Part shown: in pieces, positions 17,403 through 29,991 of the stretch | How positions within the stretch are numbered: position 1 is the stretch's first letter | How the letters are laid out: each line of letters begins with the position of its first letter | NCBI GenBank assembly: GCA_018302765.1 | Contig: JAGVZG010000027.1 | Coordinates: 1-29,991 of the forward strand | Reading direction: 5' to 3' | Length of the DNA stretch: 29,991 bases | DNA from: Candidatus Woesearchaeota archaeon | GTDB lineage: Archaea > Nanobdellota > Nanobdellia > SCGC-AAA011-G17 > GW2011-AR18 | Translations under genes and position numbers: made by a program | The notes under the pieces: model-generated | Told to the model about the DNA's origin: nothing | The model's input: the letters and a program-made list of their open reading frames with translations, nothing else | Databases searched by the model: none

Positions 17403-18377
17403 TTAGCTAAAAAACCCAGCAGTCAAAATCTGTATACCATATCTAACTAAGAAAAAAACCAACAAAGACAAGCCCAAAAGTACAGGCAGTAATTTTATTC
17501 CTTCTTTTTCCTTTCCCTTGCTAATTAGTCCTATAATAAACGCACCCATTATTGAAGTCGTTATCAATATCAATAAAGCAAAATTAAATATAAAGGAAGG
17601 ACTAATATTTATAGCCTTCACAGCTAACGGTGTATTAAAACTAGCTGCAACACTAGAGGAAAACTGAACATTTTTTAAAGTACTAACTAAAATATCTACT
17701 AAAAATGTGCTTAAGCCAAGCAAGACAGGAGAACCAAATACTATTGCTATGAAAATAAATATAGTGTACATATTAACGCTAGTTCTTATCTTCTTATCAA
17801 CTAATTTCTGATTTTTTAGTTCATTAGAACTCTGCTGAAGCAGATCTGCTAATTTGCCTCCAGATTTTATTCCAGAAATAATCAGATTTATAGTTCTGGA
17901 CAAAGTTTCTGACTGCACTCTTTTTGTCATATTAAACAAAGCTTCCTCAATTGGCTTACCAGCAGTAATTTCCTTTCCAACAATATTTATTTCATATTCC
18001 AAAGGTCCAAACTCGGGCCTGGCAGACAACAGCAAAGCCCTGTCTGTTGTAAAACCAGCTCTTAAATTTGTAGCCATCAACTGCAAAGCATCTGGCAGAA
18101 TCTCATCTACTAATCTAGCTTTTTTATCTGCATAAACTAACAGCCACAGATATAAAACCAAGTACATCAAAACAAAAATAAAAATTCCAAAAATCCAAGT
18201 ATTCACATCATACAACCTACCAAACAATATTCCTAAGATTGCAGCAATCAAGAAATTAAACAAGAATATAAAACCCAAAAAACCATCAGGATTGACATTT
18301 ATGTTTGAGTAAATTAACAAATTTGTATAAAAATTCTTTAACTGCCTGGGATAAATTGAAGCAAATAGTTTATACAT
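17403..18377 (-). CDS. Type II/IV secretion system F-family (TadC/PilC-like) membrane platform protein
   Basis: LPDALQLMATNLRAG, EFGPL, GKPIEEAL, SGGKLADLL; multiple TM helices. Confidence 0.9.
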   Translation of the reverse strand: MYKLFASIYPRQLKNFYTNLLIYSNINVNPDGFLGFIFLFNFLIAAILGILFGRLYDVNTWIFGIFIFVLMYLVLYLWLLVYADKKARLVDEILPDALQLMATNLRAGFTTDRALLLSARPEFGPLEYEINIVGKEITAGKPIEEALFNMTKRVQSETLSRTINLIISGIKSGGKLADLLQQSSNELKNQKLVDKKIRTSVNMYTIFIFIAIVFGSPVLLGLSTFLVDILVSTLKNVQFSSSVAASFNTPLAVKAINISPSFIFNFALLILITTSIMGAFIIGLISKGKEKEGIKLLPVLLGLSLLVFFLVRYGIQILTAGFFS

Positions 18378-18378
18378 T

Positions 18379-19266
18379 TTAAAAACCTATAAGATTAGGC
18401 CTCCTGGTCTTTATCATTCCTAAAAACATTATCTGAAAGAATAATATAAAAACATAAATTCCAAAGAAAACCATCTTTATAGTAGAAGCTTCCTGATAAA
18501 CAAAAGAAGACAAAATTATCAGCATAGTCATTGCCAAAGCAGGCATTATAACAGCAATTATCATATAAAACATAGCCAGTGGGCTAAGCTGTGAGCCATA
18601 CTGCTCTATTTGTATTATCTGTTCTTTTGAAAGATTATTCAGTGTTTCTTCCAAAACAGAAGAAATATTACTGCCTGCCTTCATGCCATTAGAAATCTGC
18701 CAAAGTGCCCTTCTGTAGTACAAGGAAGGACTATTAGTTGCTGAGTCCTCTATAGCGTCAACTGCAGCTAATCCAGAACTAACTTTTTTTACTATATTTT
18801 TAAATTCATTAGAAACTCCACCATAATTCTGGTGCGATATGGCAACCATAGTATCAAATAAAGGAACTCCAGAATTTATATGTATTAATAAAGTTCTTAA
18901 TGCTGGAAGTAAGTTTCTATCTATGTCTCTTATGCGTCTTGAAGCAATTAACTTAGGATAAAACATCTGCTGCATAAAAATAAAAAAAGATATAATAAAA
19001 GAAGCTAAAAATGAAATAAATAAGAAATTAGTTGACAGTAAAAAATAAATTAATAAAAAACTAATAAAAAATATTAAAACAAAATAAACAAAAGTCACAA
19101 CAACGCACATTGAAATATACTCACGCGCATTAAATCCTGAATCAGCTTGCTTTAAGTCCATTTCTAAATAAGGAAAAAAAGGCTTAGGCAGTTCAGCTAA
19201 GCCCATAGCTGATTTTGAAATAGACCTTAATTTATTCTGAGGAATAATGGAAAAAGGTATTTTCAT
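18379..19266 (-). CDS. Second T2SS-F family (TadB/TadC-like) membrane protein
   Basis: LLPALRTLLIHINSGVPLFD, YGGVSNEF, GMKAGSNI; TM helices. Confidence 0.9.
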   Translation of the reverse strand: MKIPFSIIPQNKLRSISKSAMGLAELPKPFFPYLEMDLKQADSGFNAREYISMCVVVTFVYFVLIFFISFLLIYFLLSTNFLFISFLASFIISFFIFMQQMFYPKLIASRRIRDIDRNLLPALRTLLIHINSGVPLFDTMVAISHQNYGGVSNEFKNIVKKVSSGLAAVDAIEDSATNSPSLYYRRALWQISNGMKAGSNISSVLEETLNNLSKEQIIQIEQYGSQLSPLAMFYMIIAVIMPALAMTMLIILSSFVYQEASTIKMVFFGIYVFILFFQIMFLGMIKTRRPNLIGF

Positions 19267-20762
19267 CTTAGTATTTCCTTTACGTTACCTTTGTTCATAA
19301 GCTTAATTAAATTGTCTTTGTTTAAATAAAATTCCCTCATAACTTTCCCTACAGCATCAATCTTTCTTATGCTGTGCTTGACCATAAAATCAAGTATCTT
19401 AATTTTCTCCTTAAGATCTTGGTTGATTTCCTGCTGACTCATTCCAGTATGCCTACCTAAACTATCAAAAAACTTAACGCTTTCAGAATGCTTGATAATT
19501 TCATCAGTAGCTGGCTTCCATCTATAAATTATATTTGGCCTTACAACATTTACTCCCTGCTCCTCTGTTACTAAAAACTCACCAACTTGGTACAGCCTTC
19601 TTATTCCTCTGCGTCTATCTCTAAACATAACAACATTCAAATGCACTGCTTCTAAAAGATTTGAAGGAACATTGATTGGAGGGTTTATCAATCTGCTAAT
19701 AGTTTCAGCTACACTGTCTGCATGCAAAGTAGCATATACACTATGTCCTGTATGCATAGCCTCAAATAATACTTCAGCATCCCTCTGCCTTCTTATTTCT
19801 CCCAATATTATCCTATCTGGCCTCATCCTTAAGCTGTTAATTAAAAGATCGAGCATGGAAACTTCACCTTTGCCTTCAGGATTTGGAAGTCTAGTAACTA
19901 AAGGAGCCCAATACAAAAATTTTGGCAGAAGCAACTCTCTTGTGTCTTCTATGCTTAAAATTCTGTGATTTAATGGTATAAAAGGCATACAAACATTCAA
20001 AAAAGAAGTCTTGCCTGAAGCTGTTCCACCACTTATTATAATATTCATTTCATATTGCATAGCAAGCCATATTAAAGCAAACAATTGGGAAGTAGCTGTT
20101 TTATTTTTTATTAAGTCTGTTACAGTCCAAGGATCGCGTGCAAATTTCCTTATTGTTATTGTATTTCCCTTTGAGGATATTGGATACAAAACAGCATTTG
20201 CCCTATCTCCTGTAACTAAATGCGCATCTAATAAAGGATCTAAAGAAGTAATCTGTCTTCCTACACGCCTTGCTATAATTTCAGAATAGTTATTTATTTT
20301 GGCTTCAGAATCAATAACTACATTTGTAATAAGCCATCCATATCTTTTATGATAAACTCTTACAGGCTCTTGTGAAGAATTTACTACTATTTCCTCTAAT
20401 CCTTCATCCAACAACAAAAATTCAATATCTCCTAAACCAACCATTTCATTCATTAATCTACCTATTAAAACATTTTTAGTTGATTCATCTATATTCGGAA
20501 CTTCCTCTTTCAGCATTAAAGAAACTGCAGTCATAAATTTCTCTTTTATCTTGTCTATTGACTTAGGATCAAGAATTTCAGAAGAACTAAGTGTTATCTT
20601 GGTTACAATGCCTGTTTTTATAGAATCCAAAAGAGCTAATGTAGGAACAGAAAACTTTGGTATTGATAATTCATAATTAGTTGCTCTGTTTTTTAAACCC
20701 ATTATCTTTACTTGAATACTAAATCCATAAGATTTTATTGTATATCCTTCTATTGCTTCCAT
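19263..20762 (-). CDS. Type IV pilus assembly ATPase (T2SS-E / CpaF / PilB-like)
   Basis: LEEIVVN, GGTASGKT, SIEDTREL, LRMRPDRIILGEIR, MHTGH, TLHA. Confidence 0.94.
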   Translation of the reverse strand: MEAIEGYTIKSYGFSIQVKIMGLKNRATNYELSIPKFSVPTLALLDSIKTGIVTKITLSSSEILDPKSIDKIKEKFMTAVSLMLKEEVPNIDESTKNVLIGRLMNEMVGLGDIEFLLLDEGLEEIVVNSSQEPVRVYHKRYGWLITNVVIDSEAKINNYSEIIARRVGRQITSLDPLLDAHLVTGDRANAVLYPISSKGNTITIRKFARDPWTVTDLIKNKTATSQLFALIWLAMQYEMNIIISGGTASGKTSFLNVCMPFIPLNHRILSIEDTRELLLPKFLYWAPLVTRLPNPEGKGEVSMLDLLINSLRMRPDRIILGEIRRQRDAEVLFEAMHTGHSVYATLHADSVAETISRLINPPINVPSNLLEAVHLNVVMFRDRRRGIRRLYQVGEFLVTEEQGVNVVRPNIIYRWKPATDEIIKHSESVKFFDSLGRHTGMSQQEINQDLKEKIKILDFMVKHSIRKIDAVGKVMREFYLNKDNLIKLMNKGNVKEILR

Positions 20763-21250
20763 CTTAATTCCGGTTCTCCAAATGTGGGATAATGCGTATA
20801 TGCTAAACTATGAGATTCAAGTATCTTTCCCCACTGCTCTATCTTGGAATTGTCAATATTAAATAATTTAGAAACTTCAGAAAACTTAACAACATGATAT
20901 TTCTCAATCAGCCTGTACAGCTTATCTAAATCTGTTTCATATTTGTTATGCTTCAGTGCGATAAATCTTCTCATAGAATGTAATTTAACATCTCCAGAAA
21001 CAGGCTGCTTTACAGAAATAACTTTCTTATTAATATGTCTATTTTTGCTGCTGAATTTAATCACAAAAAATCCAACAATAGTAAACAAAGAAAACAATAA
21101 TCCAATATACAATAACCATAAATTAGAAAGCACCACAGAAAATATAAGTAATGAAATACTTACAAAATAAAACATTAAAAAATCCAGACTTTGTCTTCTT
21201 TCAGAAGTATTTTTCACACTATGAGAAGAACGCTTGTACACCTTTTTCAT
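20750..21250 (-). CDS. Membrane protein with a C-terminal winged-helix-like domain, first gene of the ATPase operon
   Basis: Two TM helices, then TDLDKLYRLIE...FSEVSKLF...IEQWGKILE...HYPTFGEP. The ATG at 21250 is preferred over the track's TTG at 21271 because TTTATAA lies ~30 nt upstream; overlaps the ATPase start. Confidence 0.7.
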   Translation of the reverse strand: MKKVYKRSSHSVKNTSERRQSLDFLMFYFVSISLLIFSVVLSNLWLLYIGLLFSLFTIVGFFVIKFSSKNRHINKKVISVKQPVSGDVKLHSMRRFIALKHNKYETDLDKLYRLIEKYHVVKFSEVSKLFNIDNSKIEQWGKILESHSLAYTHYPTFGEPELRWKQ

Positions 21251-21303
21251 TAACGATTTTTTACATTGCAACGTTATAAATATTTGTAATTATTTAAGAA
21301 TAG

Positions 21304-22122
21304 TTACACAATCCTTGGCTTGGCAGCTTTTATAAGTCCAAACTCAGGAAATGAAATATTCACAATGTTATTCATATGAACTTTCAGATTAGTGGCATTG
21401 TTAAAAGTAATTGTAATATTATAAAAAACAGAAGCATTCTGAAAAGTTTTTACTTCAAACAGACCAGCGCCATTTTTATTTAATTTGAGTTCAGAAGGCC
21501 CACCAGAAACTAATCTATTAAATTCAACATCAACGTCACTGCTTAAGTCAACATCTTTCTCCATTTGCAATGTTGAAGTTTGATTTTTAAATACAACAGT
21601 AAAGCTTGTATTGCCACTGCTAAATTCCTTCCAGTCTATATTGTCAATCATAATATCTGACTTATAAACAGTAAATACAACGCTATCTATATCTTTAAAA
21701 TTTGTCATGTAAATACTATCATTGCTAAAATAATAATCTATATTAACAGGAGTTAAATAAATTCTAGTATTGGCAGTAGAGCTATTGTCTATAAAAACAT
21801 GAGTTTCTCTGCTCTCAACAAAAGACTTAAAACCATCATAAAGCAAAATATACTTGTTTAATTTCTCGCTGTCAACTAACTGACTTATTGAAAGCTGTCC
21901 GTCTGCTAAACCAACACTAACTCCAGAATTTCCTAAGAATAAATTCACCAATGCTCCACTTAAAGAATCAAAAAGGCTGTTTGCCTGATTAAACAAAGAA
22001 ACATGAATAGCACTTTCACTAGTATACTGATTCAAATTAAATATTAAAAAAACTAATCCTAAAAAAATAATACTAAGCAAAAATGAAATTATTGTAAACA
22101 TTACTCCTTTACCCATATCCAA
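21304..22122 (-). CDS. Minor pilin-like protein (class III signal peptide)
   Basis: MGKG/VMFTIISFLL hydrophobic N-terminus and beta-rich C-terminus; overlaps the preceding pilin gene. Confidence 0.7.
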   Translation of the reverse strand: MDMGKGVMFTIISFLLSIIFLGLVFLIFNLNQYTSESAIHVSLFNQANSLFDSLSGALVNLFLGNSGVSVGLADGQLSISQLVDSEKLNKYILLYDGFKSFVESRETHVFIDNSSTANTRIYLTPVNIDYYFSNDSIYMTNFKDIDSVVFTVYKSDIMIDNIDWKEFSSGNTSFTVVFKNQTSTLQMEKDVDLSSDVDVEFNRLVSGGPSELKLNKNGAGLFEVKTFQNASVFYNITITFNNATNLKVHMNNIVNISFPEFGLIKAAKPRIV

Positions 22123-22508
22123 TACCTCGCTTCTCCATAGTCTGAACCAACTGCAAAATAACGTTTTCCTGCACCAACAAATCTATCTGACAACTGAATA
22201 TTCCCAGTATCAAAACTAAACCCGTCAGCAGTATATGCAGTTATCCTCATATCATAGCCTGCAGGAAGCAATTCTCTTGTCTTGTTATAAGTCAAATTAG
22301 CATTCAAACTGCCTAAAACCCCTGTATGGTCTAATAATGCTAATATATCGCTGCCAAGTGCAGTCATCTGAAGCTGGCTAAATCCATTATCAGAAGCTTT
22401 TGACACATAATAGACAGAAACAAAATATACCAACGCAAAAATAGTAATAGCAATCAATACGTCCAGAGTAAAGACAACTGCCTTACTTCCATAATGATAT
22501 TTCAACAT
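22101..22508 (-). CDS. Minor pilin-like protein (class III signal peptide)
   Basis: SKA/VVFTLDVLIAITI. Confidence 0.75.
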   Translation of the reverse strand: MLKYHYGSKAVVFTLDVLIAITIFALVYFVSVYYVSKASDNGFSQLQMTALGSDILALLDHTGVLGSLNANLTYNKTRELLPAGYDMRITAYTADGFSFDTGNIQLSDRFVGAGKRYFAVGSDYGEARYWIWVKE

Positions 22509-22953
22509 TTGCTACTCCATCTTTGTATATAACATTCCTTCTTAAGTTGACAGCCTGGCCAGAAGAATAGTTGCCTATTTCCACTATGCTCACATTATCC
22601 TTAACTAATAAAAAATAAAAATTATACAAACCAACATTAGTAGAATTAACTATGTTTGCATATCCTAAATTCTTAAAGGCCTCAAGTTTTTTATCAGAAA
22701 TAATAATACTTTTGCTTGACAAACCTATTAAATCAGGCGTGGAATTAAAATCCTCCCAGTTTTCAGGAACTCCAGGACTTTTTAGTAATTGGTCTGCAAG
22801 CTGAAGAGTATAAAGCTCAACTTCATTACGCATCAAAGCGTCACTAAATCTTAACTGATATACATTCCAGCTAACAAAAAAAGATACCAAAAGTACAATA
22901 AACAAAAATACTGCAAAAAATAAATCCATAATTACTATTTGAGCTTTAAGCAT
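22483..22953 (-). CDS. Minor pilin-like protein (class III signal peptide)
   Basis: LKA/QIVIMDLFFAV; LLKSPGVPENW motif. Confidence 0.8.
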   Translation of the reverse strand: MLKAQIVIMDLFFAVFLFIVLLVSFFVSWNVYQLRFSDALMRNEVELYTLQLADQLLKSPGVPENWEDFNSTPDLIGLSSKSIIISDKKLEAFKNLGYANIVNSTNVGLYNFYFLLVKDNVSIVEIGNYSSGQAVNLRRNVIYKDGVANVEISLWK

Positions 22954-23314
22954 TTTTTATAGTTACAAAACCATTATTGTTTATTATATTTACCCTCCCA
23001 GTAAAAGTTGAATTTATAATGTCGCCTCTATAGCTACAGACACTGCTAGTATTAAAACCTTCAACAATTATAGAACCACTATTGATAAAAACTCTGGAAG
23101 ACACATTAAAATCTATAACAGCTCCGTCCCCTAATTCCACTGCGCTGCTTAAAGCATTAGAAACCCTAAAGCATTCTCTTTTTAATTTAATAACTTTATC
23201 TGAAACTCTAATGCTTGCATTTTTTTCTAGGTAAAAAGAAAAAAATATAAGAAAAATAAAAATCACTAAAGAAATAGCTATAATAAATTCTAGACTTATC
23301 TGGCCAGTTTTCAT
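22946..23314 (-). CDS. Minor pilin-like protein (class III signal peptide)
   Basis: KTG/QISLEFIIAI with +5 Glu. Confidence 0.8.
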   Translation of the reverse strand: MKTGQISLEFIIAISLVIFIFLIFFSFYLEKNASIRVSDKVIKLKRECFRVSNALSSAVELGDGAVIDFNVSSRVFINSGSIIVEGFNTSSVCSYRGDIINSTFTGRVNIINNNGFVTIKNA

Positions 23315-24855
23315 ATAACAACACCTATGTCTGCCTCACTAATATGTGCAACCTTGCCATTCATTGTATTTTGCGGTGCGATCCTTAGTTTCACAAAGTT
23401 GCTCTTGCCTGTGAGCACCGTTTTTGTCACATTGATCTCATTAAAACCACGATTTATACCTGAAACAGCAATATTGTTCATAGCAAATGTTGTTGCATTA
23501 TCAAGAATAATATTTTGTTCATCTGAAGAATAAGCATAAACAATCAATGTATAAGGCAAAACCTCTGAATCTACAGTCTTGACTCTAATAGCATATTCTC
23601 TAAATTCATTCCTAGTTTTATTTAACTGCAATATATAACCTTCATACCGATCTCCAACAGATGTATAATAAAACCTAGCAGAACTTGGCGGCGTATTCTT
23701 ATCATCATCGCTTAAATCTAAAGTATATAACGTCAATGTTGACTGGTTATCTCTAGCAGTAATTCCCAAACCTGAAGAGATCTTAAAATTCCATGCAAGA
23801 TCTGGAACTCTATAATCAAAAGCATTGCCGACAATGCCGCTAGATGAATACACATTAACCAGTGAATTTGGATAAGGACTTTGATATCCTGTATTTCCAG
23901 AAATATCACTAGCAAAGCTTGTATTAATGTACCAAGAACCAACACTTTGTAAACTTATGGAAGTGCCATAAATTCCATCTCCGGCAACACCAGCGCATGT
24001 TCCAACATCACTTAAAGTATAATTTAGCTCTTCCGGCAGAGGGTAATTAAAAGGTGTATTTATAACAACCCAAGCGCCATCTATAGCATCATTATCAGTA
24101 ATAGTTGCATTTACACAAATAGAACTTCCTGCTGTTAAATTAATAGGACTAACCTTTGTATCGCTTACTGAAGGAGGACTTAAATCTAAATTAACCTTGA
24201 AATCAATCAATGAAGAAGAAATCATAACGTTGCCAAAATTGTCAACGCATCTTATATAATATTTATAATCTCCATTAGTCAATCCGCTTAAAGAATTAGT
24301 ATGACTTATGCCAGAACCATCAAAAAAATTTAACATTGAGCTATAGCTCTTGTCAGTAATATCATATTTACATTTGGCAGGCTCATCAGTTGTTACAGAC
24401 AAAGTAATATCACTAACCCTAACTGTACCAGAAGGAGAAACACTAATTACTACAGGCGCTGTTGTGTCATTAGCCAGGCCTACAACAACATTGTTGTCTT
24501 TTGCTTCAATAACTAATCTATAAACTCCAGCAACAACAGGTATTCTACCTGTTACATTAACACTACTGAAAGCAACTGCATCTCCAAGACTGTAAAATGA
24601 AAGTTTTATTGTTTTATTATATATAGAATAATCTTTGATTCCTTGTGGCACATTAATCCAAACATAATCCCTAGAGCCAGACCCCAAAGCATAAACTGCT
24701 TCTGATTTTCTAGCTAATATATTTACTATGTCACTTGCCTGATTTAATCTTGTTGTTCTGTTTGACTCAGACAGAGAATAATAAAAAATAGGTATTAAAA
24801 CTAACAAAACAATGCCTAAAATTATAACATACTCTACTGCTGCTTGTGCCCTCAT
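23311..24855 (-). CDS. Large pilin-like protein with Ig/Fn3-like domains; candidate tip adhesin
   Basis: MRA/QAAVEYVIILG; DTTAPVV, TTDEPAKCKY...YYIRCVDNFGN, DLSPPSV domain boundaries. Confidence 0.8.
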   Translation of the reverse strand: MRAQAAVEYVIILGIVLLVLIPIFYYSLSESNRTTRLNQASDIVNILARKSEAVYALGSGSRDYVWINVPQGIKDYSIYNKTIKLSFYSLGDAVAFSSVNVTGRIPVVAGVYRLVIEAKDNNVVVGLANDTTAPVVISVSPSGTVRVSDITLSVTTDEPAKCKYDITDKSYSSMLNFFDGSGISHTNSLSGLTNGDYKYYIRCVDNFGNVMISSSLIDFKVNLDLSPPSVSDTKVSPINLTAGSSICVNATITDNDAIDGAWVVINTPFNYPLPEELNYTLSDVGTCAGVAGDGIYGTSISLQSVGSWYINTSFASDISGNTGYQSPYPNSLVNVYSSSGIVGNAFDYRVPDLAWNFKISSGLGITARDNQSTLTLYTLDLSDDDKNTPPSSARFYYTSVGDRYEGYILQLNKTRNEFREYAIRVKTVDSEVLPYTLIVYAYSSDEQNIILDNATTFAMNNIAVSGINRGFNEINVTKTVLTGKSNFVKLRIAPQNTMNGKVAHISEADIGVVI

Positions 24856-24967
24856 TCTAATTTTTTTTTATTCAGCAATTAAAAAGATTTGTTTTGACTA
24901 TACAATAGTAAGACAAAGCTTAAATACGGCAATAAAACAAAGTATAGTGAGGCATTATAATTAATAA

Positions 24968-24975
24968 GAGGTGAT
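24968..24975 (+). promoter_or_regulatory. Strong Shine-Dalgarno (GAGGTGAT) of the major pilin
   Basis: AAGAGGTGATCAAATG directly before the ATG at 24979. Confidence 0.75.
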
Positions 24976-24978
24976 CAA

Positions 24979-25458
24979 ATGAAACAGAAAAAAGCTCAAG
25001 CAGCAATGGAATTTCTCATGACATATGGCTGGGCAATATTAGTAGTTCTAATTGCGATAGGTGCATTAGTCTATTTTGGCGTATTAAGCCCAGAAAGATT
25101 TGTGCAAGACAATTGTACATTAACGCCACCGCTAAGTTGTTCTCAGCTTGGTGACTTTGTTGCAACAGCATCTGCTGCTAGCAATGTTAAATTCCAAGTC
25201 CAAAATGGAGCAGGCAGTACTCTAAATATAGCATCTGCTTCTCTCATAGAAACTGATGGAAATATATGTACTAGAGTAGACATTACATCAAGCATTGGTG
25301 ACGGTGGTAAATCAGAATTCGTATTTACTTGTAATGATATAAGTGCACAAACACCAAAAGGAACAAAGTTCAAAGGTGATATAAGCATTACTTATTCATT
25401 GACAGGTGGAACATACAACCAGACAAGTACTGGAAAAATTGCTGTAAGAATACAGTAA
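24979..25458 (+). CDS. Probable major type IV pilin (class III signal peptide)
   Basis: KKA/QAAMEFLMTYGWAILVVLIAIGALVYFG, typical of archaeal pilins; four Cys in the globular domain; strong SD and own terminator. Confidence 0.88.
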   Translation: MKQKKAQAAMEFLMTYGWAILVVLIAIGALVYFGVLSPERFVQDNCTLTPPLSCSQLGDFVATASAASNVKFQVQNGAGSTLNIASASLIETDGNICTRVDITSSIGDGGKSEFVFTCNDISAQTPKGTKFKGDISITYSLTGGTYNQTSTGKIAVRIQ

Positions 25459-25475
25459 TTTTTTTCTTTTTTTTT
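25459..25475 (+). terminator. Oligo-T archaeal terminator after the pilin
   Basis: T7-C-T9 immediately after the TAA. Confidence 0.65.
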
Positions 25476-26328
25476 AATTAACTGCTATAGAAATATCAGG
25501 AATTTCTGCATGATATCCAACAAAAGATGCTTCATAGGATATATCAGAAAGACCATTTAATCCGAATTTACTAATAGATCCAAGGTACAAAAAACGAGCT
25601 TGTGATTTTTCAGGATTAAAAGCTGCAAGATTGAAAGGATGCCAAACTCCTAATGTTGACCATTTTATATGTACTGTTTTATCTATAAACCTCTGAGCTT
25701 CTTTTTTGCCTCCAGTATAAACTATAACTTGGGAATCTCTTACTTCGCCAGAATGATCTAGCAATCTTTCAACAGATTCATTACCGCTAATTGTTTCTCT
25801 AGCTAAACTCAATGGCCTTACTACAGCAAAAGGACTTGTATAGCCTCTTATTATCTTTTCTTCTAAAAACTGATCATAAGCTACCACATCTACATAAGTA
25901 TTGTCAAGAAGCCTGCAATCATTTAACAACACCTTTAAAGGATCTTCATCAAATAAATCAGTAAGTACAAAAGATCTAACGTCACTAACTCCTCCAGTTT
26001 TTCTTTTATGCATTTCCATGGCTAGTTGTAATTTTTCAGGAGGCAAAAGCTTTATCATACCTCCATGCAAAGTAATTACAACATGATCTTCATTGCAATA
26101 CTTATGTGATTTGTCTATTCCTGAAATATCTCCCGAATCTGTAGTACACCAGTTTGAATGTGGGAAATTTCTAATAAGTAATGGCATAATTGCAGGAATT
26201 AAATCTTTGTCTAAAACCTCTCTCTCAGCGTTAAAAATATTATTAACAGGAAGAAGTTTTCCCTTTAGGTCTTTATCAGTCAAGTAATCTTCATCATCTT
26301 TAGCTATTAAATCAAAGTAAATATCCAT
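25474..26328 (-). CDS. Hypothetical cytoplasmic protein with a DGR-variable-region-like (C-type-lectin-fold-like) C-terminus
   Basis: 284-aa ORF ending LGVWHPF...QARFLYLG-x5-GL-x-G-x3-I-x3-ASFVG. The CDS call is solid; the DGR-target interpretation is inference. Confidence 0.6.
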   Translation of the reverse strand: MDIYFDLIAKDDEDYLTDKDLKGKLLPVNNIFNAEREVLDKDLIPAIMPLLIRNFPHSNWCTTDSGDISGIDKSHKYCNEDHVVITLHGGMIKLLPPEKLQLAMEMHKRKTGGVSDVRSFVLTDLFDEDPLKVLLNDCRLLDNTYVDVVAYDQFLEEKIIRGYTSPFAVVRPLSLARETISGNESVERLLDHSGEVRDSQVIVYTGGKKEAQRFIDKTVHIKWSTLGVWHPFNLAAFNPEKSQARFLYLGSISKFGLNGLSDISYEASFVGYHAEIPDISIAVN

Positions 26329-26366
26329 TGTAAAATCAGAAAAAATACTAAAAATTATAAGGCTTA

Positions 26367-27125
26367 CTAAATAACATTCTCTTCTGGATAAAGAACTATT
26401 CCTTTGTCTTTTATCCTAAAAGGTATTATCTTCTCCTCAAACTTGGTTCCTCTCATCTTTATAATTTCAAAAACTCTTCTTCTGACGTTCCCCTTAGTAG
26501 TATTTAAAAGAATCATAACACTATCAACTTCAAAATCAACAAAACTAGCCTTTCGTTTATCAGGCTCAGCTTCCTGTTCAAGCGTTAAAAGTGTTGTGCA
26601 CCCATATTTTGATATTAAGGAAAACAACTCAAGCAAAGCTTCTCTGCCAGCGAGCTCATTAGGAAACAACAAAGTAAAACCATTTATTGAATCAATCACT
26701 AAACGTTTTGCTTTTATTCCCTGCATAGCTCTCTCAATTTCCCCTCCGCCCTCCTGAAGCAATGCCTTAACCTGCTCAGGACTGTATCTTAAAAATATAA
26801 ACTTCTTGGCCTTCTCCAAATCCATTAAATTCCAGCCAAATTTTGACATATACTTATAAAAATTTTCCTTTGTTTCCTCAAAAGAAACATACACACCATT
26901 TTCCCCAACTTCAATGCCTTTAAGCAAAAATTGCAGTGCAAATATAGTTTTGCCAGAACCAGGGCCGCCAGAAACTAAATTAGTGGACCCATCAACAAAA
27001 CCACCTTGTACTAAATTATCTAACCCAACTATTCCAGTAGAAATACGTTTAAAAGCTAAATTCTTCTTTGATTTTTTATTCAGCTTGCTATCTTGCTTCT
27101 TTTTCTTTAGATTTCTTTTTTTCAT
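26367..27125 (-). CDS. Single-domain KaiC-like RecA-superfamily ATPase
   Basis: ISTGIVGLD, GGPGSGKT, SFEE, LVIDSI, KMRGT; Lys-rich N-terminal extension. Confidence 0.9.
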   Translation of the reverse strand: MKKRNLKKKKQDSKLNKKSKKNLAFKRISTGIVGLDNLVQGGFVDGSTNLVSGGPGSGKTIFALQFLLKGIEVGENGVYVSFEETKENFYKYMSKFGWNLMDLEKAKKFIFLRYSPEQVKALLQEGGGEIERAMQGIKAKRLVIDSINGFTLLFPNELAGREALLELFSLISKYGCTTLLTLEQEAEPDKRKASFVDFEVDSVMILLNTTKGNVRRRVFEIIKMRGTKFEEKIIPFRIKDKGIVLYPEENVI

Positions 27126-27694
27126 GGTTCAACAAAGTAATTTCCCTTTCCATCAGAAAGATCTACTACACTATCACAATAACCGCTTAATTTTTTTATA
27201 AATGATTCATCTAACTCCTCTTTTATAGCCAGTAAGATAGTTGCTGCCTTTGACTTTTTATTCTTCTGGGACAGCAAATGAACAAACTTAACTAAATCAT
27301 TAGTACTATTATACAAAGAAAGCGTTGATAATGAATCTATAACTACAAAATTATTTTTAGTGCTTTTCAAACAACCTGCAATATTAATTGAAATTTCAGT
27401 TAGGTCAGAAGGGTGATTAACATAAATAACCTTTGATTTGGCATTGATTGTATCGCCACCAAGTTTGCTTATTGTATCAATAAAACACAGATTGTTATAA
27501 TCTACTTTATACTTTTTCAATAAATCAACAAAGTAAGAATGACTTTTAGTTGCAGAAACAAAAACCAGTTTCCTTGAACCGCTTGAATGTTCTTTAAAAA
27601 GCTTCAAAACAAAACCAACATAGTTTTTTGAATTTATTATAGCTATAACTATATCTCCATATTTAAATTTTAAAATATCATTAAATTTATTCAT
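27122..27694 (-). CDS. Degenerate KaiC/RecA-like protein without a Walker A motif
   Basis: FIDTIS, VVIDSLSTL, YCDSVVDL retained; no GxxxxGKT. ATG at 27694 is preferred over TTG at 27700. Confidence 0.72.
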   Translation of the reverse strand: MNKFNDILKFKYGDIVIAIINSKNYVGFVLKLFKEHSSGSRKLVFVSATKSHSYFVDLLKKYKVDYNNLCFIDTISKLGGDTINAKSKVIYVNHPSDLTEISINIAGCLKSTKNNFVVIDSLSTLSLYNSTNDLVKFVHLLSQKNKKSKAATILLAIKEELDESFIKKLSGYCDSVVDLSDGKGNYFVEP

Positions 27695-27700
27695 AGGCAA

Positions 27701-28432
27701 TCACTTTATATCATGAATAACTATTCCGTCTTTGCTTATCTCAAGAGGATGTATATCTTCTTCATTTCTCGTTCTTCTCATTTTCTTGACTATTAAACTT
27801 CTGGAGTATTTACCACCCATTGGTTCAAAAGAAATTTTAATAACACCATCACACATAAATTCTGCCAGATCACTTTTATCAACTAGGTTTTCAGAAGATT
27901 GCTGAGTGAGTAAAGTAGTAATGCCATTAATATCTTTAAGCTTGTCAGTAAATTCATATATAAATCTCCTGATAGCAAAATCATTAACTTCATTCAATTT
28001 CATATAAGCTGTTGGGATTTTTATAGATAAACTAGACAAAGAATCTATAACTAATCTTTTTGCGCCAAATTTTTCAACTTTACTAAATAACTGCTCCATA
28101 TAACCTTTTTTCAGTTCAAAAGTACGAATTGTTATTAACTGCAATAAACCATCCCTCTCTAACTTAGCTAAATCCCATCCAAACTGCTTTGCCTGTTCCA
28201 ACAAACTGTTCCTATCTTCCTCCAAAGTTATAAAAACGCCTCTTTCATTAAACTTTTTCGCACCATTGAATAAATAATTTAATCCAAATATTGTTTTGCC
28301 TGTACCTGGCTGGCCAGAAAGCAACACTATAGAACCCAATGGAAAACCACCATCAACAAGTTTATCAAATCCCTTGATACCTGTAATCACCCTTCCCATA
28401 ATGTAGTTTTCCATATCTAACTTAAAAATCAT
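27701..28432 (-). CDS. Second single-domain KaiC-like ATPase
   Basis: ITGIKGFD, GQPGTGKT, TLEE, LVIDSL, KMRRT; the true start may be a downstream Met. Confidence 0.9.
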   Translation of the reverse strand: MIFKLDMENYIMGRVITGIKGFDKLVDGGFPLGSIVLLSGQPGTGKTIFGLNYLFNGAKKFNERGVFITLEEDRNSLLEQAKQFGWDLAKLERDGLLQLITIRTFELKKGYMEQLFSKVEKFGAKRLVIDSLSSLSIKIPTAYMKLNEVNDFAIRRFIYEFTDKLKDINGITTLLTQQSSENLVDKSDLAEFMCDGVIKISFEPMGGKYSRSLIVKKMRRTRNEEDIHPLEISKDGIVIHDIK

Positions 28433-28522
28433 TTGGAATAACTCAATAGTAGTTAACTAATTTATTAAAAAGATAAAAAACATCCAAACCAATCATTAAA
28501 AAATTATAAGTTTAATATCTAT

Positions 28523-29215
28523 ATGAAAATAAAAAGAGTGACAAATAGAGGAGATTTGCTTGGGCACTTAAAAGCAAGATATAGTGCATATACTTTTAAT
28601 AATTATTTAAAAAAAAACACTGATGGCTTAGATATAGATATTTATGATTTTTTTTCTGAACACCTGGTAGTTGTAGAAAATAATATGGTAATAGGGACTA
28701 TGAGAATGATTACTACAAACAAAAGAACAGCACTGCAAAAAGAATTGGAAGATATTGTGTGGAGAACAAGTGATAGTTGCTTTGATAAAATTAAATATGC
28801 CTTATATAAAAATAGACTAGAAGAAATAAGAGTTAATCTACTTCCAACTCTAGCTTATTTTGACCTATTAAGTAATATAAAAAGTCTTGGTTATAGAATT
28901 GAAGAAACAGTAGAATTCAGCAGAAATAGTGTACATCCAGAATACCGTGGCAATGGGGTATCAAGAACTTCTCTTACAGCAATTTATGCACTAGCAAGAA
29001 ACTATAATCCAAAATGTGTTATAGGGTCATGCAAACAAGGCGAAGAGCCATTTTATAAAAAACACGGCTATAGTGTAATTGATCATGATATAAAGCCAAA
29101 TCCAATGAATGGTGTGCCATCTGTAGCATTAATTCTAGACTTCAAAAATCTGCCTAGAGAAATTAATGAAAAAGTAGACAGAATAAAATTTGATAGAGAA
29201 ATAGAATTTATTTAG
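28523..29215 (+). CDS. GNAT-fold N-acyltransferase of the LuxI / FeeM (N-acyl amino acid synthase)-like type
   Basis: ARYSAY, GLDIDIYD..SEH, IGTMRM, LLP, VEFSRNSVHPEYRG, PFYKKHGY, PMNGVPSVALILD. Confidence 0.72.
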   Translation: MKIKRVTNRGDLLGHLKARYSAYTFNNYLKKNTDGLDIDIYDFFSEHLVVVENNMVIGTMRMITTNKRTALQKELEDIVWRTSDSCFDKIKYALYKNRLEEIRVNLLPTLAYFDLLSNIKSLGYRIEETVEFSRNSVHPEYRGNGVSRTSLTAIYALARNYNPKCVIGSCKQGEEPFYKKHGYSVIDHDIKPNPMNGVPSVALILDFKNLPREINEKVDRIKFDREIEFI

Positions 29216-29858
29216 TAATAATCTTCCATTTTGTAGCTAACTGATTTTCATAATTTTTATTTAAAAATTTCTCAAATCCATTAATTTGTTTTTTATTCCA
29301 TTTGTCTATCGGCTTGATAATAAACTCACAAAAAACATCTCCTTTGGCAATACACCTTGTTTCTAAACAAAACATTTGTTTTCCGCAAACACCTTCTAAG
29401 CAGCCAGCTGCCAAACCAGCCATAGTAAAATCAACAGGAAATTTTTGTAGGCCTACTAAAGATTTATACTCCTGAGCATATGTAGAACTTGTCTTGAAAA
29501 TAAATTCAAGGCTTTCAAAATCTAATTTTATAATGTCAACTTTACCATGACCTAATAATTCAAACTGACCAACATTAAAATCAAGCAGCCTCTTTTTATC
29601 CAATAATGTGTCTGCATAACCAAACTTCTCATTTACTATTTTTACTCCAGTTTTGGCCTGCAATTTTGCTATAAGATACTGCAAAGGCCTGCATTTACTG
29701 CCAAATTCCTTAAGCAAAATAAAATTTTTATAAACTTCCATCTGAATTGGAGTAAGTATACAAGGAGTATCCCAAAGAACCAGGTCACTGCCTTTATATT
29801 GCAATGCTCTTAGTCTTGCTACTTTCTGTATTATTGGTGGTGGTAAACTAAGTGCCAT
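29208..29858 (-). CDS. V4R (4-vinyl reductase) domain ligand-binding protein, stand-alone
   Basis: LLGHGKV, PVDFTMAGLAAG, ETRCIAKGDVFCEF. ATG at 29858 is preferred over TTG at 29873; 8-bp convergent overlap with the GNAT. Confidence 0.85.
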   Translation of the reverse strand: MALSLPPPIIQKVARLRALQYKGSDLVLWDTPCILTPIQMEVYKNFILLKEFGSKCRPLQYLIAKLQAKTGVKIVNEKFGYADTLLDKKRLLDFNVGQFELLGHGKVDIIKLDFESLEFIFKTSSTYAQEYKSLVGLQKFPVDFTMAGLAAGCLEGVCGKQMFCLETRCIAKGDVFCEFIIKPIDKWNKKQINGFEKFLNKNYENQLATKWKIITK

Positions 29859-29893
29859 TTTAGTTATTATCAAGTATTAATTAATATTTAAAT

Positions 29894-29991
29894 TTAAGCA
29901 ACTGTTATGCCTGAAACAGTTAATGACGTTCCAGTAACAGTAACACTTGTCTTGTCTTTCAACTGTGCCTTGAATGCATCAGGATTCTTTA
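29894..29991 (-). CDS. 3' end of a probable S-layer protein, truncated by the window edge
   Basis: My translation ...KNPDAFKAQLKDKTSVTVTGTSLTVSGITVA* resembles, from recall, the C-termini of Methanococcus-type/DPANN S-layer proteins. Confidence 0.5.
   Translation of the reverse strand, partial: KNPDAFKAQLKDKTSVTVTGTSLTVSGITVA

Follow-up and report, generated by a model that had tools for sequence, protein, structure and literature searches.

The locus

We analysed a 29,991-bp stretch of DNA (the window) that is the complete contig C13 (JAGVZG010000027.1) in the genome of a Candidatus Woesearchaeota archaeon (assembly GCA_018302765.1). The genome comprises 1.02 Mb in 28 contigs with about 30 % GC and is rated 100 % complete; genome sizes among its relatives in the genome collection range from 0.5 to 1.9 Mb, which fits a DPANN-type archaeon. 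Toward one end of the window lie three genes, encoding an acyltransferase of the GNAT fold, a stand-alone V4R sensor protein and a KaiC-like ATPase, next to a type IV pilus (T4P) locus. These three genes and their relation to the pilus are the subject of this study. Genes were identified from the listing of open reading frames (ORFs) and from Pfam and NCBIfam scans of the window proteins. The genes of the acyltransferase end of the locus are as follows.

28523-29215, plus strand: FeeM/LuxI-like GNAT N-acyltransferase of 230 amino acids (aa), a putative N-acyl amide synthase (Acetyltransf_5 and FeeM matches)
29208-29873, minus strand: stand-alone V4R sensor protein, 221 aa (V4R, PF02830, E 9e-9, 35.7 bits, cut-off 31)
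28433-28522, no strand: AT-rich divergent intergenic region of 90 bp between KaiC243 and the GNAT (from reading the sequence)
27701-28432, minus strand: KaiC243, a KaiC-like ATPase of the V4R-linked type that heads its operon (KaiC, PF06745, E 4.5e-57)
27122-27700, minus strand: inactivated KaiC-like protein (iKaiC), 192 aa (DUF7090, 36.1 bits, cut-off 27; KaiC, 23.1 bits, below the cut-off)
26367-27125, minus strand: KaiC-like ATPase of the pilus-linked type (KaiC-A, here KaiC252; KaiC E 4.9e-61)
25474-26328, minus strand: 284-aa protein at the end of the KaiC operon (without a family in Pfam, NCBIfam or PADLOC)

The GNAT and V4R genes are arranged tail-to-tail with an 8-bp overlap of their 3' ends at 29208-29215. 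This convergence had been proposed in an earlier interpretation made from the letters of the DNA (the sequence-only reading), and both the ORFs and the Pfam matches bear it out. On its other side the GNAT is divergent from the minus-strand run of KaiC genes, and the 90 bp between them presumably contain promoters. The KaiC genes are tightly packed: KaiC243 and iKaiC are separated by 0 bp, and iKaiC overlaps KaiC252 by 4 bp. The same reading had counted three KaiC-like genes in this run. The layout is as it described, but the middle gene is inactivated, matching DUF7090 (and also DUF7504), and no Walker A motif was seen in its sequence.

The GNAT belongs to the FeeM branch

The window GNAT matches Acetyltransf_5 (PF13444) with an E value of 3e-11 (44.2 bits, cut-off 22.4) and FeeM (PF21926) with an E value of 1e-7 (32.1 bits, cut-off 27), the latter over residues 19-67 only. 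All 40 of the relatives that were aligned match Acetyltransf_5 and 39 of them match FeeM. Autoind_synth (PF00765), the LuxI family, gave no match to the window GNAT at E 0.01 in the Pfam scan and matched one of the 40 homologues (E 4e-4); weak matches were seen in three relatives (E 3e-5, 1.6e-4 and 4e-4), the best of them exactly at the 24-bit cut-off. A weak match to OlsB was found in the NCBIfam scan. Within the GNAT fold we assign the enzyme to the branch of FeeM and the N-acyl amino acid synthases, which is related to LuxI and lies outside the LuxI family proper. The sequence-only reading had named it a LuxI/FeeM-like synthase; our assignment favours the FeeM part of that name. The product is probably a fatty-acyl amide.

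Proteins of this kind are scarce, with 92 matches at E <= 1e-3 and seven at E <= 1e-10 among the 1.84 billion representative proteins searched. Five residues (R19, D42, R61, E131 and R134) are invariant across the alignment of the 40 relatives, and the conserved pattern R / D-x-x-D / R / E-x-S-R resembles the LuxI motif. An alignment-based AlphaFold model of the GNAT (predicted local distance difference test score of 96) has a FeeM-like fold into which some 40-50 helical residues are inserted (approximately residues 70-121); generic 140-residue GNATs score similarly, and small generic GNATs reach the scores of the N-acyl-homoserine lactone (AHL) synthases. Among distant members of the family alignment one carries a TIR domain and one a receiver domain, and several members of 400-480 aa are extended at the N-terminus by about 160 aa that match no Pfam family. 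A related-loci search with the GNAT yielded a single weak locus, from a metagenome and without informative neighbours, and none among genome contigs.

The window GNAT thus shares PF21926 and PF13444 with the FeeM-type N-acyl amino acid synthases but covers the FeeM model in part only and has the helical insertion. FeeM systems stand in a fee-type or PEP-CTERM cluster context, whereas the window GNAT is paired with a V4R-KaiC sensor, in an archaeon without a detected acyl carrier protein (ACP). It differs likewise from LuxI-family enzymes, whose receptors are LuxR-type transcription factors, while the putative receptor in the window is a V4R protein with a KaiC ATPase.

A stand-alone V4R protein

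The window protein contains the one V4R domain counted in the genome. A family profile made from it and its relatives matches the sensor domains of MopR (5kbe, E 3.7e-10) and PoxR (5fru, E 3e-9) and also MJ1460, with weak colinearity to the sensor domains in the N-terminal half. Given its likeness to these domains, which sense phenols in MopR and PoxR, the protein appears to correspond to an entire effector-binding domain of that type. It contains the motif E-x2-C174-x7-C182, in which C174 is invariant in the alignment; in MopR the equivalent motif binds zinc. Although the profile match and this motif link it to the effector-binding domains of the MopR/PoxR/XylR type, the window protein stands alone, without the AAA+ or DNA-binding output domains of those regulators, and its likely partner is the neighbouring KaiC.

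Within 29858-29896 on the minus strand, a TTTAAATA box precedes by about 25-30 nt an in-frame ATG that forms codon 6 of the V4R ORF. The V4R transcript may be leaderless from 29858 and not start from the TTG at 29873. Tandem-like V4R proteins of 360-400 aa follow the KaiC in some relatives (L081:9088-10290, L120:8318-9520, L121:8298-9467 and L124:2-1084).

The three genes recur together across the class

We built a profile from the GNAT and the relatives closest to it and used it to search 400 genomes drawn from across the phylum. Seven genuine FeeM-like relatives were found, each in a different family of the same class. A V4R homologue (27-45 % identity over nearly the full length) is present within 3 kb of every one of them, and the V4R homologue is preceded in each case by a KaiC that is 46-53 % identical to KaiC243. 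We considered that the GNAT may be an ordinary acetyltransferase present by chance and rejected this possibility, as every FeeM-like relative in the phylum sample is V4R-linked.

V4R homologues are present in 27 of the 400 genomes. We analysed 27 V4R loci, 25 from the phylum sample and two from the order sample; two of them end at a contig edge by the V4R gene. The 400-genome tallies include the unpublished genomes G427 (GNAT), G280 and G391 (V4R), whose neighbourhoods are left out. A V4R-type KaiC is adjacent to the V4R gene at 23 of the 27 loci and is usually translationally coupled to it, and at 13 loci the KaiC is itself preceded by a conserved protein of about 100 aa that we call sm110. 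The FeeM-like GNAT is found on the convergent side of V4R at 13-14 loci; at nine of the loci (L068, L079, L080, L081, L111, L113, L115, L123 and L128) the GNAT abuts or overlaps the V4R 3' end as in the window. Another type of GNAT occupies the convergent position at four loci. Two methyltransferases without a GNAT domain (L116:5545-6231 and L120:9535-10314) were excluded from these counts by a Pfam check.

The GNAT of the relatives has company. Genes for B12-binding radical S-adenosylmethionine (SAM) enzymes are co-directional with it at seven loci, one of them fused to a SAM methyltransferase, and its partners also include methyltransferases, several of them GNAT-fused, and ThiF-like genes (four loci). 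The V4R loci commonly also have histidine kinases, receivers, HAMP-PAS proteins and iKaiC genes as neighbours. Taken together, the loci of the relatives resemble a cassette for the biosynthesis of a small molecule, set opposite a sensor operon. Because the adjacency is conserved across families that share only 30-45 % protein identity, we consider it probable that the GNAT, the V4R protein and KaiC243 act together.

At four loci the FeeM-like domain is fused to an N-terminal SAM methyltransferase (L081:7672-9087, L122:5973-7250, L123:4968-6218 and L128:1854-3140), and the fusion of a B12-radical-SAM enzyme to a methyltransferase is found at L076:10585-13164. The methyltransferase fusions hint that the N-acyl product is methylated, as it would be in the methyl ester of an N-acyl amino acid. 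The N-terminus of sm110 reads M-G-x-I-[IL]-S-[ST] without variation in the 13 operons (for example L076:14563-14877 on the minus strand, and L080:6513-6812 and L113:12690-12995 on the plus strand), a start that resembles the eukaryotic N-myristoylation consensus MGxxxS/T, in a gene with an N-acyltransferase cassette as its neighbour. Neither Pfam nor the PDB provided a relative of sm110, the best result being a MazE/AbrB-like match at E 0.16, and the genome of the window contains no match to it.

The full-text literature searched contains no description of a FeeM-like or other GNAT enzyme coupled to V4R and KaiC; Makarova et al. 2017 (mBio), outside that search, may mention the V4R link.

Two types of KaiC in one operon

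Both KaiC243 and KaiC252 contain the motifs G-x-P-G-x-G-K-T and hhhhDS and have Walker A, Walker B and the catalytic Glu intact; across the alignment of the KaiC243 family the Walker positions do not vary. The two proteins are predicted to be active-type ATPases and iKaiC an inactivated one. We placed the window proteins in a quick maximum-likelihood tree of 61 KaiCs, for which the careful search was incomplete so that only starred branches are trustworthy. KaiC243 falls inside the V4R-linked clade with a support of 98 in the Shimodaira-Hasegawa-like approximate likelihood ratio test (SH-aLRT), in a set of 26 rows that holds all 22 V4R-adjacent KaiCs. KaiC252 falls inside the pilus-linked KaiC-A clade (SH-aLRT 97). 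A third clade, KaiC-B (SH-aLRT 100), has no member in the window.

A paralogue of the 284-aa protein that ends the operon lies at about 86.5-87.3 kb of contig C10. In the ESM Atlas this protein has only uncharacterised look-alikes, and no homologue of it was found in the pilus loci of the relatives.

The pilus locus and its KaiC genes in close relatives

Beyond the 284-aa gene the window holds a complete archaeal T4P locus, with the following features.

24979-25458, plus strand: 159-aa pilin-like protein whose N-terminus is of the class III signal type (homologues of 35-68 % identity at the T4P loci of relatives)
21304-24855, minus strand: five pilin-like or minor-pilin genes (514, 122, 156, 135 and 272 aa), each with a hydrophobic N-terminal helix and syntenic in relatives
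20750-21271, minus strand: 173-aa membrane protein without a family (homologues directly before the pilus ATPase in at least ten relatives)
19263-20762, minus strand: T4P assembly ATPase, VirB11/FlaI-like (T2SSE, E 2.5e-33, 115.7 bits)
17403-19266, minus strand: two TadC-like membrane platform genes (T2SSF, E 5e-16 and 1e-14, 59.1 and 54.9 bits)

The pilus ATPase also reaches 275 bits with the FlaI-like NCBIfam model, which is under the cut-off of that model, and the 514-aa pilin-like protein has a weak Class_IIIsignal match below the cut-off; six proteins have pilin-type N-termini. A T4P locus one gene beyond the KaiC genes was part of the sequence-only reading, and the pilins, the T2SSE ATPase and the two T2SSF genes are indeed found past 25474-26328.

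We compared the locus with 60 genomes from the genus, family and order to which the window belongs. Homologues of KaiC252 are found in 22 of them, and 20 of these loci were fetched for neighbourhood comparison. KaiC-A (42-53 % identity) adjoins homologues of the pilus ATPase, TadC and pilins in at least ten genomes from different families of the order, and the KaiC-A pilus loci of the order often also carry KaiC-B (about 30 % identity) and iKaiC. The link between KaiC and the pilus that the earlier interpretation had drawn is therefore conserved in the order, and it is also published (Makarova et al. 2016, PMC4858521, on KaiC ATPases at archaeal T4P loci). In addition, CirA is a KaiC-like regulator of archaellum genes with genetic support (PMC10983859).

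In relatives of the same family the set consists of iKaiC, KaiC-B and KaiC-A, and in the window KaiC243 takes the usual slot of KaiC-B. The nearest relative that has the locus, G006, carries the KaiC set between the RNase J and TadC genes. In the window RNase J directly abuts TadC, and KaiC243, iKaiC and KaiC-A are situated at the other end of the pilus locus. From the comparison of these two layouts we conclude that the KaiC genes remained with the pilus locus through a rearrangement, and that a KaiC of the V4R type now heads their operon. The pilus-KaiC locus as a whole is an accessory region.

A model of two joined modules

We propose that the window joins two separately conserved modules and that the sensor module feeds the pilus module, a reading to which we give a probability of about 0.5. 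The first module is the T4P locus with its own KaiC regulators (KaiC-A and iKaiC), widespread in the order of the window. The second is a reduced copy of the class-wide KaiC-V4R sensor operon, tail-to-tail with a FeeM-like N-acyltransferase cassette. The GNAT would take an acyl group from a thioester donor, either imported or supplied by the host, and couple it to an amine to yield a hydrophobic N-acyl amide. The V4R protein would bind this product or its precursor and, through contact with its partner KaiC243, alter the activity of that ATPase. In most genomes the usual output is probably sm110, which is encoded first in the operon. With sm110 missing here and KaiC243 heading an operon with iKaiC and KaiC-A, the ligand state would probably be relayed to pilus assembly or expression.

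Not all parts of this model are held with the same strength. That V4R senses the product of the cassette, and not its substrate or an outside compound, is a tentative proposal for which we would give somewhat less than even odds. The pilus as the output in this genome is more doubtful still and comes from one genome; what makes it plausible is that sm110 is missing and that KaiC243 is packed into the pilus-linked KaiC operon. We hypothesize, as the most extended and an unlikely version, that a host-dependent archaeon makes an N-acyl amide, or modifies one from host material, which the V4R-KaiC pair reads, and that through the pilus KaiCs this lipid-like cue gates pilus assembly and with it attachment to a host or a surface.

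The known KaiC-regulated pilus and archaellum loci (PMC4858521; ArlH; CirA, PMC10983859) resemble the window, which likewise has a single-domain KaiC and an iKaiC beside an ATPase/TadC operon. The difference is that the pilus-linked KaiC operon of the window is headed by a KaiC of the V4R clade, which brings with it a ligand sensor and an enzyme. What is new here is the coupling of the module to a pilus locus and the replacement of KaiC-B by a V4R-type KaiC.

Evidence against the model and alternative explanations

A number of observations weigh against the model. The junction of the three genes with a pilus locus is found in one genome only. The sequence-only reading had treated GNAT, V4R, KaiC and T4P as one arrangement; the first three recur across many families of the class, but the four-part set exists only in the window, and a T4P ATPase lies within about 8 kb at none of the 27 other V4R loci. 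In the 60 close relatives the GNAT is absent from the matches and V4R has only two weak ones. The genomes G001 and G002, of the same genus (73 % and 87 % complete), have no orthologue of the pilus ATPase or of the three KaiCs. The GNAT and V4R genes, being convergent, are not co-transcribed. Compared with the relatives, KaiC243 is placed beyond the GNAT and not directly upstream of V4R, which is preceded instead by an unrelated stub. No radical-SAM, methyltransferase or ThiF gene adjoins the window GNAT, with distant radical-SAM and ThiF homologues located on contigs C10 and C11 of the genome. With sm110 missing as well, the copy of the module in the window is reduced and may be decaying, and its arrangement could be a recent, neutral rearrangement.

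The supply of substrates is a further difficulty. Control genomes matched and this genome did not for ACP (PF00550), AMP-dependent ligases (PF00501) and CoA_binding_2, the domain of ADP-forming CoA ligases, and the same is true of the archaeal and bacterial SAM synthetases (PF01941 and PF02773). Because ACP, the ligases and the SAM synthetases were not found, the acyl donor and SAM would need an outside source. The missing donor enzymes weigh against autonomous biosynthesis and are compatible with the modification of host-derived material.

The sequence-only reading had placed a probable S-layer gene upstream of V4R, but the contig ends there. Only 118 nt remain beyond the V4R gene, and the supposed S-layer gene amounts to the following partial gene within them.

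29894-29991, minus strand: C-terminal stub of 31 codons, preceding V4R at the contig end (from translation)

The final 99 nt of the contig (29893-29991) are identical to the end of contig C10, and at the opposite end, in positions 1-99, the first 96-99 nt match the ends of contigs C1, C4 and C24. Both ends of the window are assembly-graph junctions at repeats; since the last 99 nt equal the end of C10, the gene upstream of V4R lies beyond a junction.

One explanation for these observations is that the modules are accidental neighbours: the three genes would act on a target other than the pilus, and a rearrangement would have placed them beside the pilus-linked KaiCs. The lack of T4P genes at the other V4R loci, the rearranged layout relative to G006 with its KaiC set at the opposite end of the pilus locus, and the patchiness of the locus even inside the genus all favour such an accident. 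We nevertheless regard it as rather unlikely. KaiC243 abuts iKaiC without a gap in an operon where iKaiC overlaps KaiC-A, it sits in the KaiC-B slot of the same-family relatives, and with sm110, the usual first gene of the operon, missing from the genome another output is needed.

Alternatively the GNAT may make no signal. It would then acylate a protein (the N-terminal glycine of sm110, KaiC or V4R) or build a membrane amino-lipid, with KaiC and V4R controlling the GNAT in response to a hydrophobic compound from outside such as a host lipid. The invariant start of sm110, with its likeness to N-myristoylation sites, would suit protein acylation. Acetyltransf_5 also covers lipid N-acyltransferases, in line with the weak OlsB match, and a genome that lacks its own acyl-donor synthesis fits the use of scavenged lipid; the V4R relatives MopR and PoxR sense exogenous phenols. 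However, sm110 is absent from this genome, the partners in the relatives (B12-radical-SAM enzymes, methyltransferases and ThiF) look like small-molecule tailoring enzymes, and the characterised members of the FeeM family make free N-acyl amino acids according to the Pfam family description. We consider this alternative improbable.

Much less likely is a conflict or defence system in which infection induces the messenger enzyme, V4R is the sensor and the ATPase the effector. A preprint of 2026 proposes V4R-based immune systems with an enzyme-made messenger that binds V4R (bioRxiv 10.64898/2026.10.19.760177). The TIR fusion in one member of the GNAT family and the patchy, accessory distribution would agree with that proposal. 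On the other hand, no PADLOC match goes beyond the P-loop level, and the neighbours of the V4R loci are signalling genes (histidine kinases, response regulators, HAMP-PAS proteins and iKaiC) and not nucleases or other effectors.

Least likely of all, and only barely credible, is a true AHL quorum-sensing pair of the LuxI type with V4R in the place of LuxR: the LuxI-like residue pattern, the weak Autoind_synth matches in some relatives and a tail-to-tail layout similar to that of esaI/esaR-type loci speak for it, but the window GNAT has no Autoind_synth match, small generic GNATs score as high as AHL synthases, the partner enzymes in the relatives are not those of AHL systems, and an AHL-type signal is unlikely because no ACP, acyl-CoA ligase or SAM synthetase of either type was found in the genome.

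Implications

KaiC-like ATPases are regarded as major hubs of archaeal signalling. To our knowledge, almost no input or output of these hubs has been tied to a defined chemical. Where a FeeM-like acyl-amide cassette is paired with a V4R-KaiC sensor, such an input becomes concrete and can be tested, and the type IV pilus of the window is a plausible output. For DPANN-type symbionts, in which attachment to the host is central and little understood, chemical control of piliation would be of interest. If the most extended version of the model is true, the locus would encode the first circuit of enzyme, receptor, relay and output to be described at an archaeal pilus, and V4R would represent a kind of acyl-amide receptor that is new and distinct from LuxR.

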